Below, piece by piece: positions 26,899-39,163 of a stretch of DNA of 64,000 bases (positions are counted from its first letter, which is position 1; every line of letters begins with the position of its first letter). The notes below the pieces were generated by a model. The model saw nothing but the letters and a program-made list of their open reading frames with translations, was not told the origin of the DNA and did not search any database. Made by a program: the position numbers and the translations under genes. Source of the stretch: an uncultured Spirochaetota bacterium (GTDB lineage Bacteria > Spirochaetota > Brevinematia > Brevinematales > JAOACQ01); contig CAVYGN010000002.1 of NCBI GenBank assembly GCA_963768055.1, positions 1,536,001 to 1,600,000 of the forward strand, written 5' to 3'.

Positions 26899-26936
26899 GG
26901 CCCCATGGGAGCATTCGTGTTATGTACTGAAAAGTA
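26899..26936 (+). repeat. Outer left 38-bp IR
   Basis: Exact reverse complement of 39126-39163. Confidence 0.92.
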
Positions 26937-27184
26937 ACAAGCCGTTTGGCTGTCAATTAATCAGAAATATCAATGCTTTCAACATACATAAAGTAATTAA
27001 AGTATTATAAAAGTAAAGAAGCTCCCTTATTTTTTTAATTGGGGTTCTAACCATAAACCCCCGAAATATTTGATACCTATTATATTGTCGACAGCCAGGG
27101 AGATTCCCAACCTTTTCCTGAAAATTACCATTTAAGATTTTAGATAGAAATCAAAAAACGATCAAACGTAAGAAATAGAGGTCG

Positions 27185-27480
27185 GTTTCAATCCACGCGC
27201 CCACACGGGGCGCGACAACTACGCCGTCATCACCAAGGAAATAAAACCTTGTTTCAATCCACGCGCCCACACGGGGCGCGACAAAGAGCTGTCTCAATAT
27301 TTCTCCGATCTCGGAAGTTTCAATCCACGCGCCCACACGGGGCGCGACAAATTCGGAGAGGCCGTGGGCGTTTTTGAAATAGGTTTCAATCCACGCGCCC
27401 ACACGGGGCGCGACCAAATTAATCCTATTTTTTCGGAAGGGAATAAAAGTTTCAATCCACGCGCCCACACGGGGCGCGAC
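27185..27480 (-). CRISPR. Type I-C CRISPR array 1: 5 repeats, 4 spacers of 34 bp
   Basis: 32-bp repeat GTCGCGCCCCGTGTGGGCGCGTGGATTGAAAC (minus strand) at 27185, 27251, 27317, 27383 and 27449. Confidence 0.97.
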
Positions 27481-27658
27481 GATAGACAAGTTTATTGTTG
27501 ATAAGATAAAAGATTAAATGACGAATTTCGCGAATAAGCCATATTCATGGTTAATGTTATCCGGGATTATTGCGTTCGTATGTATTTGATGATATAACCT
27601 AAAGTTCTATAACCGCGAATATCCAGAGATATTCTGTTTGTCGAAGGTTCGCAAAGAT
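27481..27658 (-). promoter_or_regulatory. CRISPR leader 1
   Basis: AT-rich segment between the cas2 stop and the first repeat. Shares CGCGAA, CCGCGA and TTCGC motifs at similar spacing with leader 2. Confidence 0.75.
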
Positions 27659-27946
27659 TTACACTAATATTAAACCTTCCGGGTCAAAAGTCTTTTTTGT
27701 TCCAATATGTTCTACTCTATTTTTCCAGTTTGCTCCAAGATAATAAAATCGAAGGCTATCGTATTTTTCATTGATTTCTTTTTCAAGTTTATGCCGTAAT
27801 TCTTTCCATTGTGCAGGATCTACAAGGCATTCAAAAACAGAGTACTGAACGCGCTGGCCGTAATCTTCACAAATTTTTGCAACACGTCGGAGCCTTTTTT
27901 TACCTCTTTCATCCTCAGCTACATCATAACTCACAAGTACCAGCAT
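27659..27946 (-). CDS. cas2: CRISPR-associated endonuclease Cas2
   Basis: LVSYDV, RLRRVAK, GQRVQYSVFEC, DSLRFY. Confidence 0.96.
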   Translation of the reverse strand: MLVLVSYDVAEDERGKKRLRRVAKICEDYGQRVQYSVFECLVDPAQWKELRHKLEKEINEKYDSLRFYYLGANWKNRVEHIGTKKTFDPEGLILV

Positions 27947-27949
27947 GCA

Positions 27950-35311: not shown

Positions 35312-35315
35312 GGGC

Positions 35316-35981
35316 CTAATTTATTCCCAGTATTATATTGGATTTTCTGATACTATCCTGTATGTCTTTATTCGAGTATTTCAAATATACCAATGTATTC
35401 ATAATGTTTGCATGGCCCAGGATTGTTTTTACCTGGACTAGATTAACGCCGCTATTTAACAGCTGTATTGCCCTGGAATGTCTTAAGGTATGAAGATGGG
35501 CCAGGTCCTGATACTCCGTTCCCAGGATTGAAACAATATATTTTTTTAACGCCTTGTTGGCAGCCTGAATGGAAATCGGCTTGTTTCCTGAATTTTTAGC
35601 AAAAAGATAATCTGTTTTGATAAGTATTTTTAATTTTTCATACATCAGGATCCGGTTGATCAGAGAATTCGAAAGAGTAAGGACGCGCACTATGTTTTTA
35701 TTTCTTCTTTTCAACGTGGCCAGTTTTACTGTTTTGTTATAGAAATCGATATCATGAATTTTTACTTGAAGGACCTCGCTGATCCTGGCGCCGGTTTCAA
35801 AGGAAAATGAAAAAAGCATCTTATGGAATTCGTTAGTGATTCCATCGAGTAATTTAATAATCTCTGATTCATTAAGGTACTTTATCTCTTCTTCATAGTA
35901 ATTTTTCCAGGATGATTTATACTCCACAAGTTCAGTTTTGTTATGCTTAAGCTTTTTATTTTCATAAATTACTGCATGCAT
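35316..35981 (-). CDS. Short tyrosine recombinase (catalytic domain only), putative cointegrate resolvase
   Basis: ETGARISE, TLKRR, HTLRHS, LGHA, LVY give the R-K-H-R-H-Y set. GAGGTGG RBS before ATG 35981. Divergent from tnpA. Confidence 0.88.
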   Translation of the reverse strand: MHAVIYENKKLKHNKTELVEYKSSWKNYYEEEIKYLNESEIIKLLDGITNEFHKMLFSFSFETGARISEVLQVKIHDIDFYNKTVKLATLKRRNKNIVRVLTLSNSLINRILMYEKLKILIKTDYLFAKNSGNKPISIQAANKALKKYIVSILGTEYQDLAHLHTLRHSRAIQLLNSGVNLVQVKTILGHANIMNTLVYLKYSNKDIQDSIRKSNIILGIN

Positions 35982-36148
35982 TAGCCCACCTCGCTGGTTA
36001 AACTTAAATTGTAAATGAAACTTTCCGATAATAATTTTATCGTTTTCAAGCAAAATATGGAAGAAAATCGGGTTAAAAAAATTAGAAAAGTTTAACTTAT
36101 AATATGTTTCTTAAACTTTTTCATGATAAATTAAATTCGGGGGTTTAC

Positions 36149-39118
36149 ATGAAAAAAAACTGGGAATTGGATGAATTAATCGAACATTTTACCTTTCTTC
36201 CAAACGAGCTTTCACTTATAGGCAACAAAACAGGAGAGACCAGACTCGGTTTTGCAGTCATCTTTAAGTATTTTCAACAAGAGGCCATATTTCCGAATTC
36301 AAAATCAGATATTCCAAAGGTTGTTATTGATTATATATCCAAACAAGTAAAAGTCGCTGGAGACCTATATGATAAATACGATATCAATAGCAGAACCTTC
36401 TTTAATCATAAAGCACAAATAAGGAAATTTTTCGGGTTTCGAGAACCAACTACAAGGGATACGAATGAAATGGCCACATGGCTTGAAAAGCAAGTCCTTT
36501 ATAACAATTTTGTTTTAGACCGAATAAAGGTTGAAGCATACAAACACTTCCGGGAATTACATATCGAGCCGCCTACTGACGAAAGAGTTGACCGTTTAAC
36601 TAGGTCGGCTATAGCTTCTTTTGAAAACCAATTTTTCAGAGATATTTACCAAAAGATACCCACTGAGTGCTTGTCAAAGATGGATTTATTGATTAATAAC
36701 CTTACATCATACGATGAAAACGAACAAGATTACAGTATTAATAAAGAAGTTATTTCTTTTAGCGACCTGCGTAACGATCCTGGTCGAGTCGGTTTGGAAA
36801 GCGTTTTTAAAGAATTGGGTAAGCTCCAGACGATCCGGCAATTGGGATTACCTGTAGATCTGTTCAACAATATCCCCCAAAAGGTGCTGAATAGATATAA
36901 ATTCCGGGCTGTTTCAGAAAAGCTTCCGGAACTTCGCCGGCATCCCGAACAACTCAGATATACGATCCTGGCTGCCTTTTTTTGGGTCAGGGGCAGAGAG
37001 ATAACCGATAATTTAATTGAATTACTAATCCATATTATTCATCATATCGGGGTCAGGGCCGAAAATAAAGTTGAAAAAGAACTTATTGATGATTTCAGAC
37101 GAGTCAATGGCAAAACAAATATTCTTTTCCAGATGGCTGATGCAGCCCTTGATAATCCAGATGGTATAGTCAGGCAAGTACTGTTTCCAGTCGTCGGTGA
37201 AAACACATTAAAAGCATTGGTAAAAGAGTATAAAAGCACCGGCTCAGCATATCAACTGAAAGTATATACGATAATGAGAGCATCTTATAGCCGTCATTAT
37301 CGCCGGATGGTTCCTGAATTACTCGATAATCTTACCTTCTGTTCTAATAATGATGTTTACAAGCCTATAATAAGGGCTTTGGATTTAATTAGGAAATATA
37401 ATGAATATGGGACAAGGTTCTTTGCAGATTTTGAAGACATTCCTATCGATAATGTAATTAAGACCTCAATGAAGGAGTTGATAATCGAGAAAGATAATAA
37501 ACGTCAGGAACGCATTAACCGAATCAATTATGAAATAGTAGTTTTACAGGCGCTTCGGGATAAACTACGTTGTAAGGAGATATGGGTTGTTGGGGCTGGA
37601 AGGTATAGGAATCCCGATGAAGATTTACCTATCGATTTTGAAGAACACCGGGAAGAACACTACAGGGCCTTAAAACAGCCTTTAAATCCATCTGAATTCA
37701 TTGATAAAATCCGCCAAAATATGATTGCTGGATTATCAAAACTCGATGCAGGTATGCCTAAAAATACTAAAGTCCAGATTACCAAAAGAGGTAATGGATG
37801 GATAAAAGTCTCTCCTATTGAGGCCCAGCCGGAACCTTTAAACCTCGCAATGCTCAAAACCGAAATAACAAGACTATGGCCTATGACAAATCTTCTCGAT
37901 GTGCTTAAGGAAGCCGATCTAAGGCTCAATTTTACAGATCATTTTAAAACAATGGCCGCTCATGAAAGATTAGACAGAACTTTAATCCAAAAACGTTTAA
38001 TATTGACTTTGTATGGAATGGGAACGAATACGGGTCTAAAACGAATAGCGGCTGGAAATCGTGGTGAAACCCATCAGGACCTGTTTTATGTCCGGAGAAA
38101 ATTCATCAATAAGGATAACTTGAGAGATTCCATATCATCAGTGGTTAACTCCATCCTTAAAGTCCGAGTTAAAGACGTTTGGGGAGATGGGACTACAACC
38201 TGTGCCTCAGATTCAAAAAAGGTAGGAGCATGGGACCAAAACCTGATGACTGAATGGCATATACGTTATAGAGGACGAGGTGTAATGATCTATTGGCATG
38301 TTGAGAAAAAATCTGCTTGTATTTATTCTCAATTAAAAGCATGTTCTTCATCTGAAGTGGCTGCCATGATAGAAGGGCTTTTAAAGCATTGCACTGATAT
38401 AAATATCGAAAAGAATTTTGTTGATACTCATGGCCAAAGCGAGGTTGCTTTTGCTTTTTGCCATCTTCTCGGATTTAACCTTATGCCCAGGTTTAAAAAC
38501 ATTGGCAGTCAAAAGCTTTACAGGCCAGATTCTGGTATGGCAGACTCCTACCAAAATTTACAGCCGGTATTAACACGGCCAATTAACTGGGAGCTTATAC
38601 GTCAGCAGTATGACCAAATGGTAAAATATGCTACAGCTCTGCGTTTGGGAACAGCCGAGACTGAAGCGATCCTGAAACGGTTTACCAGGAATAACTTAAA
38701 ACATCCCACTTATCTCGCTTTTGCCGAACTTGGAAAGGCCATAAAAACTATATTTATCTGCGAGTATTTGAATTCCGAAGAACTTCGACGCGAAATTCAT
38801 GAAGGACTTAATGTTATTGAAAATTGGAACTCCGCCAATTCTTTTATTTTCTATGGTAAGGGAGGCGAGATCTCAACCAACAGGATAGAGGATCAGGAAC
38901 TAGCAATTTTATGCCTTCATCTGCTGCAAAATTGCCTAGTTTATATCAACACGCTTATGATTCAACAAATATTATCTCAAAATAAATGGCATGATTTAAT
39001 GACAGCAGAAGATTTCAGGGCGCTTACGCCGCTTATTTATAATCACATTAATCCTTATGGGCATTTTAACCTGGATATGAATGAAAGAATTCCTATAGAG
39101 ACTGATATTGCTGCTTAA
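36149..39118 (+). CDS. tnpA: Tn3-family transposase, apparently intact
   Basis: About 990 aa; [41 protein letters not shown]. Stop lies 7 bp inside the right IR. Confidence 0.95.
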
Positions 39119-39125
39119 TACAATC

Positions 39126-39163
39126 TACTTTTCAGTACATAACACGAATGCTCCCATGGGGCC
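39126..39163 (-). repeat. Right 38-bp IR
   Basis: Exact reverse complement of 26899-26936. Confidence 0.92.

Follow-up and report, generated by a model that had tools for sequence, protein, structure and literature searches.

The window analysed here is a 64,000-nucleotide stretch of the genome of an uncultured Spirochaetota bacterium (GenBank assembly GCA_963768055.1, contig CAVYGN010000002.1, positions 1,536,001 to 1,600,000). Positions 26899-39163 of this window hold a 12.3-kb unit in which a CRISPR-Cas (short palindromic repeats, clustered and regularly interspaced, with associated genes) locus and a transposition module lie between identical outer inverted repeats (IRs). With a probability of roughly two in three, the unit is a Tn3-family composite transposon that carries a type I-C system as cargo and is mobile via either of two left ends. 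Judged from sequence, the best reading is ordinary capture of cargo by a Tn3, here a CRISPR-Cas locus of the host lineage, and not RNA-guided transposition. No earlier description of Tn3 ends paired with a complete CRISPR-Cas system was found, and the evidence comes from one genome. A literature search aimed at Tn3 and CRISPR, conducted on titles and the openings of abstracts, returned no Tn3-borne complete CRISPR-Cas system.

The layout is as the initial annotation described it. The gene order is array-leader-cas2-cas1-cas4-cas7-cas8c-cas5-cas3, followed by a tyrosine recombinase and a Tn3 tnpA whose stop at 39118 lies 7 bp from the right IR. The two outer IRs are identical at 38/38 positions, and the third copy, at 30/38, forms the left end of a 3.9-kb core (Table 1). 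The perfect inverted match between the outer ends extends 5 bp outward, to 43 bp in total. A 43-bp IR was discarded: the outermost 5 bp are flank, because on the right they encode Leu-Val of an interrupted neighbouring tnpA, which aligns with a homologue as far as that Leu-Val residue at the right IR. The right flank (TACAA, 39164-39168) and the left flank (TTGTA, 26894-26898) are mutually reverse complementary. Each outer junction stops at the exact IR boundary, and the adjoining 5-mers are AT-rich and target-like.

The register of the ends is set by relatives. The sample consists of the best 80 of 563 TnpA loci in the genome_contigs collection plus two plasmid regions, and its 97 distinct 38-bp IRs fix the IR end at GG(G/C)(G/C). 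The unit has terminal IRs of the usual Tn3 length of about 38 bp that start with GGCC instead of the usual GGGG. This variant also occurs in relatives, including one with the target-site duplication (TSD) ATAAT (L045). The relatives' IRs also line up with those of the unit at AGC (positions 12-14) and at the terminal AAAGTA. Paired ends of the clade match over 38 bp and are divergent further in, and the same is true of the unit. Elsewhere in the 3.69-Mb genome, only C2:1161478 (35/38) and C2:1678521 (28/38), both lone, match the outer IRs at 26/38 or better.

The cargo comprises the type I-C gene set cas3-cas5c-cas8c-cas7-cas4-cas1-cas2, without cas6. All seven products (Cas1c, Cas2, Cas4, Cas7/Csd2, Cas8c, Cas5c, and Cas3) exceed curated NCBIfam cut-offs. 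Type I-C systems have a 32-bp hairpin repeat ending ATTGAAAC and an internal Cas11 start in cas8c, and both features are present here. The array 1 repeat forms a hairpin with a 7-bp stem (-14 kcal/mol), while cas8c contains an internal ribosome-binding site (RBS) and ATG at residue 480 with a predicted 137-aa Cas11-type product, as do the genes of genomes G008 and G048. The HD, Walker A, DEVQ, and QSAGRCNR motifs of Cas3 are intact. Cas3 departs from its homologues at 6 of the 211 columns conserved in 79 sequences, none of them in catalytic motifs, and the G008 Cas3 is likewise off consensus at three of those six. None of the four array 1 spacers has an exact 22-mer match in the viral_contigs collection, matches in phages are repeat-level only, and no spacer has a full-length match in the flanks or the genome. 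With Cas3 present, the Cas proteins appear to serve ordinary immunity and not to act as a targeting device.

The transposition module pairs a Tn3 transposase with a putative TnpI-type resolvase. Likely corrected starts place tnpA at 36149 (989 aa), the recombinase at 35981 (221 aa), and cas3 at 35255 (724 aa). TnpA passes NCBIfam NF033527 with 903 bits against a cut-off of 500, and it has the length of about 1000 aa and the DDE triad of the Tn3 family; D688, D759, and E891 are invariant in 60/60 aligned relatives, drawn from 120 listed. The nearest to it are an unplaced protein at 84% and proteins of Bacillota type, which reach 74%; the ISNpu13 family, at 56%, is also nearer than Tn4430 TnpA. 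The recombinase diverges from tnpA and is read in the same direction as the cas genes. The region between recombinase and tnpA is likely the resolution site, and its palindrome at 36086-36120 and second half-site are kept upstream of three resolvase homologues (63-67% identity). The catalytic motifs of the recombinase (Table 1) and the conserved palindromic site are consistent with a Tn3 resolvase acting at a res site. On a metagenome contig (L113), the last 22 resolvase residues recur at 91% and are followed directly by an IR and non-cas DNA, which argues that the resolvase-IR junction is a natural end of the core.

The same junction bears on cas expression. The resolvase stop lies 4 bp inside the inner IR, on the same strand as cas3, and no terminator was found between the two genes. 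With the inner IR now in place of the sequence formerly upstream of cas3, read-through from the resolvase promoter probably drives transcription of the cas operon. A promoter scan at the res region returned 2 sites against 4.9 expected.

The closest full-length metagenome relative of the resolvase (64%; L108:3839-14173) is colinear with another Tn3 TnpA type, so resolvase modules seem to be swapped between Tn3 clades. From the appearance of their sequences, we take what follows this pair to be a MazF/PemK-like gene and BREX-like genes.

Relatives also show how ends of this clade behave. Of 38 related loci for which an IR pair and the flanks on both sides are available, 20 show a 5-bp TSD and 18 do not; absence of a TSD is therefore common in the clade. 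The TSD-bearing units span 1.9-12.9 kb, with IR pairs of 30-38/38. Three of them (L001, at 12.9 kb, L030, and L069) contain inner IRs and have a TSD on the outer pair, so that a three-IR layout with outer-pair use is documented. The earlier proposal of a three-IR composite using its outer end is thus upheld in layout and by these relatives, although the 12.3-kb unit itself lacks a TSD. The companion argument, that a degenerate inner IR would make the outer unit preferred, is not supported. In a clade profile built from relatives alone (relatives' median 48, minimum 25), the inner IR scores 19.6 and the outer IR 13.8, and at four of the eight positions where they differ, the base dominant in the clade occurs in the inner IR alone, against a rare base in the outer IR. 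A pair of only 30/38 is flanked by a TSD in L009. Decay of the inner IR was dismissed because of its better profile fit and its dominant clade bases, and it is best regarded as a variant end.

A sibling, element B, lies in the same window. Its IR matches the unit's IRs at only 18/38, stands 67 bp from the trailer of array 2, and is identical to both IRs of a 387-bp element on another contig (G000:C1:116595-116981). The 387-bp element consists, in order, of an IR, 67 bp, a repeat, a spacer, one half of a repeat, the final 52 codons of a tyrosine recombinase gene, and an IR. It shares 137 identical bp with 55411-55547, and its spacer is absent from array 2. The recombinase peptide is 70-85% identical to the resolvase that lies between tnpA and the right IR in 27/127 related loci. 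A perfect TSD, TAATG, is present on both sides, and excision converts a 410-aa open reading frame (ORF) into a continuous 462-aa ORF. Content, TSD, and ORF restoration together argue that one clade end pair enclosed a CRISPR array and a transposition module and transposed. On these sequence features, the 387-bp element is a deletion derivative, and a sibling CRISPR-holding IR pair did transpose.

The element B cargo lacks cas3/5/8/7, and a gap of 339 bp separates its end from an unrelated Tn3 IR at 58822; the element B IR pattern occurs in 0/400 genomes. The two elements differ in the type of IR, in the type and place of the resolvase, and in Cas1 (65% identity), which makes two captures more probable than one, and the clade probably captured CRISPR-Cas twice in this genome. 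Just inside their left ends, the two elements match at 13/14 positions (E 0.02), which hints weakly at common ancestry. In array 2, one spacer is duplicated in tandem (window 55747-55846), and its two trailer repeats are 1 base off the other eleven.

Several results weigh against movement of the 12.3-kb unit itself. There is no 5-bp direct TSD, since the flanks read TTGTA/TACAA, and the 3.9-kb core has none either (TATAA/TACAA, a 4/5 match expected by chance in 8% of cases). The tnpA, resolvase, and cas3/5/8/7 genes are single-copy in the genome. By DNA, the unit is present in 0/60 relatives and no plasmid covers it, while TnpA at E<=1e-100 is found in 2/400 other genomes of the phylum, both at just 36-37%. 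No cas genes lie inside an IR pair in 84 related loci. Element B supports the kind of event and not the 12.3-kb unit, because its IRs and resolvase differ. Finally, the nest around the unit comprises at least four Tn3 types, and in such a setting rearrangement can bring ends to face each other.

The check proposed with the initial annotation, for the same boundaries in other flanks with 5-bp TSDs, produced no second copy in 60 relatives, 400 phylum genomes, plasmids, and viral contigs. The IR pattern occurs in 1/42 other genomes of the class, as a lone IR without tnpA. A resolvase scan of metagenome_contigs gave six loci, none with cas genes, and viral_contigs contain one TnpA locus without cas and no Cas7 relatives. 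Plasmid Cas8c matches number 44 records, of which the 40 listed are at 22-30%; the four inspected have no Tn3 transposase in the stretches displayed. One related locus, L069, has cas1-cas2 near a clade Tn3 and was rejected as a CRISPR carrier, as the element sits inserted in the array. A TSD records the history of a copy, so its lack lowers the probability that this unit has moved and leaves its membership in the Tn3 family untouched. Because there is no TSD, a single copy, and no other genome, movement of the 12.3-kb unit in one piece is something we infer. The earlier idea of a portable immune system holds insofar as a complete I-C locus stands inside a matching IR pair, and these same three observations weigh against its having moved as one piece.

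These points also favour the most serious rival, an unlikely one, in which the unit is a rearrangement scar: a resident CRISPR-Cas locus trapped between remnants of separate Tn3 insertions and adjacent deletions, which never moved whole and may still be able to. It would fit the cas3-5-8c-7 genes of G008 (63-87% identity) and the full locus of G048, which stand without Tn3 in the stretches examined. It would also fit an insertion sequence (IS) end relic between the outer IR and the array (27100..27166), 85% identical to nine copies of a 2.5-kb IS that is presumably IS21-like, to judge from its 513-aa and 248-aa ORFs. A clade-profile scan found ten IR-like sites and one marginal match dispersed in the genome, and related Tn3s are inserted into arrays (L069, L136), so closeness to arrays can come from insertion alone. 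The scar does not readily account for outer and right IRs that match at 38/38 when no other genome site exceeds 35/38. Nor does it predict that both arrays have an inward clade IR within 250 bp of the trailer (a rough post-hoc null of 2e-4 that ignores insertion bias) or that the ends of element B transposed as a pair.

It is very improbable that the left IR and its adjacent 5 bp are an assembly artefact copied from the right end. Inverted-identical 5-bp flanks arise by chance in about 0.6-0.8% of cases under the clade's target bias, and we know of no standard Tn3 reaction that yields reverse-complementary flanks. The left junction is not among the run contigs listed (24/73), whereas the right outer junction is spanned by one contig of run X2; runs X1-X3 belong to a single study of low cover, possibly the assembly's source, and are not independent. 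Against an artefact, the assembly has two contigs, the 43-bp repeat is shorter than a read, no contig joint or loose end is listed at either IR, and 1/50 IR pairs in relatives also has inverted flanks (L121). A Tn3 in which Cascade directs TnpA to CRISPR RNA-matched targets is hardly credible: cas genes do lie inside the transposon ends and I-C CRISPR-associated transposons (CASTs) with Tn7 exist (10.1101/2021.08.16.456562), but Cas3 and Cas1/2/4 are intact, unlike in the CASTs of that survey, no ORF is left in the unit for a TniQ/TnsC-like adaptor, full-length spacer matches are absent from the flanks and the genome, and none of the Cas3 deviations is catalytic.

In the preferred reading, a Tn3 composite with I-C cargo, TnpA would bind two 38-bp ends and move the intervening DNA replicatively, leaving a 5-bp TSD, and the tyrosine recombinase would resolve the cointegrate at the site between recombinase and tnpA. 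Use of the right IR with the inner IR would move 3.9 kb, whereas use of the right IR with the outer IR would move 12.3 kb, CRISPR locus included. A core from outside the host lineage would have inserted 18 bp upstream of a cas3 of the host's own family, and another left end would have arrived beyond the array trailer. A foreign core meeting a host-lineage locus is suggested because the nearest Cas3 among the scored candidates is in the host's own family (74%, in G008; next 58%) while the sampled genomes of the phylum contain nothing close to TnpA. The G008 genes have other upstream neighbours and no Tn3 on their 10.5-kb contig, and the complete G048 locus has the same order and a nearly identical repeat. 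There is no sign of transfer of the unit between taxa, with the nearest Cas3 in the host's own family without an adjoining Tn3.

Adjacent deletion from one end is established behaviour of Tn3 elements. A later deletion of this kind could have removed the TSD and the 3' part of the neighbouring tnpA, and it is our proposed cause of both losses. The right IR severs that gene, and its homologue runs on for 282 residues that are missing from this genome. Empty-site reconstruction fails for both the 12.3-kb unit and the core, as the 3' part of the severed tnpA is not in the genome.

Three-ended Tn3 elements are known. Tn1721/Tn1722 and the B-type Tn1721-blaKPC-2-IRL2 share with the unit a Tn3 core, three 38-bp IRs, and cargo outside the core (PMC5756416, PMC8725868). 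The IRL2 form also has its extra end on the left, and its core, cargo, and extra left IR are mobile as a unit, which makes it a precedent (PMC8725868). The Tn1721 forms carry resistance cargo and a serine resolvase, whereas the unit carries CRISPR-Cas and a tyrosine resolvase; in addition, its inner IR is 8 bp off the outer pair and it has no partial tnpA duplicate. Tn4430, Tn5401, and TnBth4 resemble the unit in their Tn3 TnpA, tyrosine resolvase, and inverted-repeat core site upstream of the resolvase (PMC7157771). In these elements tnpI and tnpA are colinear, with irs upstream of tnpI and no passenger or a toxin-antitoxin pair, while the genes of the unit are divergent and place it outside the Tn4430/Tn5401 type (PMC7157771). 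The unit's TnpA is also far from that of Tn4430 (E 9e-72). The available text of the same survey covers 190 Tn3 members, three with TnpI, and contains the word CRISPR 0 times (PMC7157771). TIMEs and TIME-COMPs resemble the 387-bp sibling in being short derivatives of Tn3 that are not autonomous and have IRs of 38 bp and direct repeats of 5 bp, and TIMEs with IR pairs of 29-30/38, comparable to the inner/right pair here, transposed (PMC4133298). Their available description mentions no CRISPR content (PMC4133298), and the 12.3-kb unit is by contrast autonomous.

Mobile CRISPR-Cas systems are known from other carriers. The pKLC102-like islands of Pseudomonas aeruginosa, like the unit, place a complete I-C system on a mobile element; their protospacer-adjacent motif is TTC, the one expected for the unit (PMC7913775). 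Their carrier is a conjugative island of about 100 kb with demonstrated activity and spacer targets, whereas the unit is known from sequence alone; in the available part of that paper Tn3 is mentioned solely with anti-CRISPRs (PMC7913775). Tn7-like transposons and CASTs, like the unit, hold CRISPR-Cas inside transposon ends (PMC8649781, PMC11406308, 10.1101/2021.08.16.456562), and complete CRISPR-Cas as Tn7 cargo is rare, with two type III cases (PMC8649781). CASTs have Tn7-like machinery (tnsB/tnsC/tniQ), use Cascade for targeting, and have lost cas3 and cas1/2, as the I-C CASTs have (10.1101/2021.08.16.456562); the unit differs in its Tn3 machinery and in its intact Cas3 and Cas1/2/4. That survey, whose available text never mentions Tn3, would miss such an element because contigs bearing Cas3 or Cas1/2 were left out of its search for non-Tn7 cases.

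Separately, one Acidisoma strain has the same complete I-C locus on two plasmids (L132 and L133; NZ_CP126997.1 and NZ_CP126996.1). Upstream of that locus are a tyrosine recombinase and a toxin-antitoxin pair, and the stretches displayed contain no Tn3 transposase. Insertions of Tn3 elements into CRISPR arrays were seen at L069:5865-13260, in a cyanobacterial metagenome-assembled genome, and at L136:1-2490, in G047.

Table 1. Coordinates in the window of the 12.3-kb unit, its flanks, and element B.
Feature	Position	Strand	Remarks
Left flank TTGTA	26894..26898	.	reverse complement of right flank, no direct repeat
Outer left IR, 38 bp	26899..26936	+	points at array; 38/38 vs right IR; register by relatives
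CRISPR array 1	27185..27480	-	5 I-C repeats (32 bp), 4 spacers (34 bp); trailer end toward outer IR
Putative leader region	27481..27658	-	assigned by place between cas2 and array
cas2	27659..27946	-	TIGR01573
cas1 (I-C)	27950..28981	-	TIGR03640 over cut-off; E/H/E motifs present
cas4	28981..29628	-	TIGR00372
cas7 (Csd2)	29634..30497	-	TIGR02589
cas8c	30494..32344	-	TIGR01863
cas5c	32341..33066	-	TIGR01876; PDB 8g9t_N E 1e-42
cas3 (HD + helicase)	33081..35255	-	RBS ~35266-35270; start 18 bp outside inner IR
Inner IR, 38 bp	35274..35311	+	left end of 3.9-kb core; 30/38; flank TATAA
Tyrosine recombinase, putative TnpI-type resolvase	35316..35981	-	221 aa; PF00589; R-K-HxxR-H-Y set complete
Putative res site	35982..36148	.	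palindrome 36086-36120 + second half-site ~35995-36025
Tn3-family transposase tnpA	36149..39118	+	989 aa, D688-D759-E891
Right IR, 38 bp	39126..39163	-	38/38 vs outer left IR
Neighbouring Tn3 tnpA (flank)	39164..41338	-	interrupted at codon 725, precisely at right IR
Element B IR, 38 bp	55411..55448	+	same clade, points at array 2; clade-profile genome scan
Element B cargo: array 2, cas2, cas1, cas4	55516..58483	-	13 repeats in array 2

The unit sits in an island of about 50 kb, from about 16.1 kb in the window to C2:1602400, that corresponds to a 234-bp gap in G001. The island contains at least four Tn3 end types, and the unit's IRs lack the 3' TAAG of its other Tn3 ends. Near the left edge, positions 17133-17508 hold three 117-bp tandem-like repeats. 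An intact 4.8-kb Tn3 at 19412-24242 has GGGG...TAAG IRs, the TSD TAGTA, a serine resolvase, and a Gp49/HTH toxin-antitoxin pair, and a third copy of its left end lies at 58951. A membrane protein gene at 25461-26744, 70% identical to a G003 gene (529 aa), has a frameshift near codon 427 and is either a pseudogene or the result of a sequencing error.

To the right of the unit, 39164-43935 contains a second tyrosine-resolvase Tn3 with a truncated tnpA, a PIN gene, and a 214-aa recombinase 37% identical to that of the unit; IRs at 42894-42931 and 43898-43935 enclose a cation-efflux gene. Another Tn3 of about 7.4 kb, from 58822 to C2:1602199, has inner IRs at 58951, 61711, and 61759, carries a HigB/HTH pair and an FGE-sulfatase-domain gene, and forms the right end of the island. 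Lone clade IRs without transposase occur at window 49589-49626, at C2:1161478, 1672317, and 1678521, and at G002:C111:10778.

A broader hypothesis, tentative and on present evidence doubtful, is that one Tn3 subclade, with IRs ending GCAAAGTA/GAAAAGTA and tyrosine resolvases, repeatedly captures whole I-C loci in the layout end-array-cas2-cas1-cas4-(cas7-cas8c-cas5-cas3)-transposition module-end. It would spread working immunity by copy-and-paste between chromosome and plasmids, and the cas operon of the intact element would be under the resolvase promoter and co-regulated with cointegrate resolution. If so, the two elements of this genome would be the first members. The element is not a new programmable integrase. 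CRISPR-Cas loci are patchy and often on plasmids or islands, but how a complete locus leaves a chromosome for a transferable replicon can rarely be seen. For this step, a Tn3 composite would provide a base-exact, testable route that is replicative, has little target specificity, and leaves the donor copy in place. That this genome holds two such elements, one of them with a derivative proven by its TSD, suggests that such capture is repeatable.

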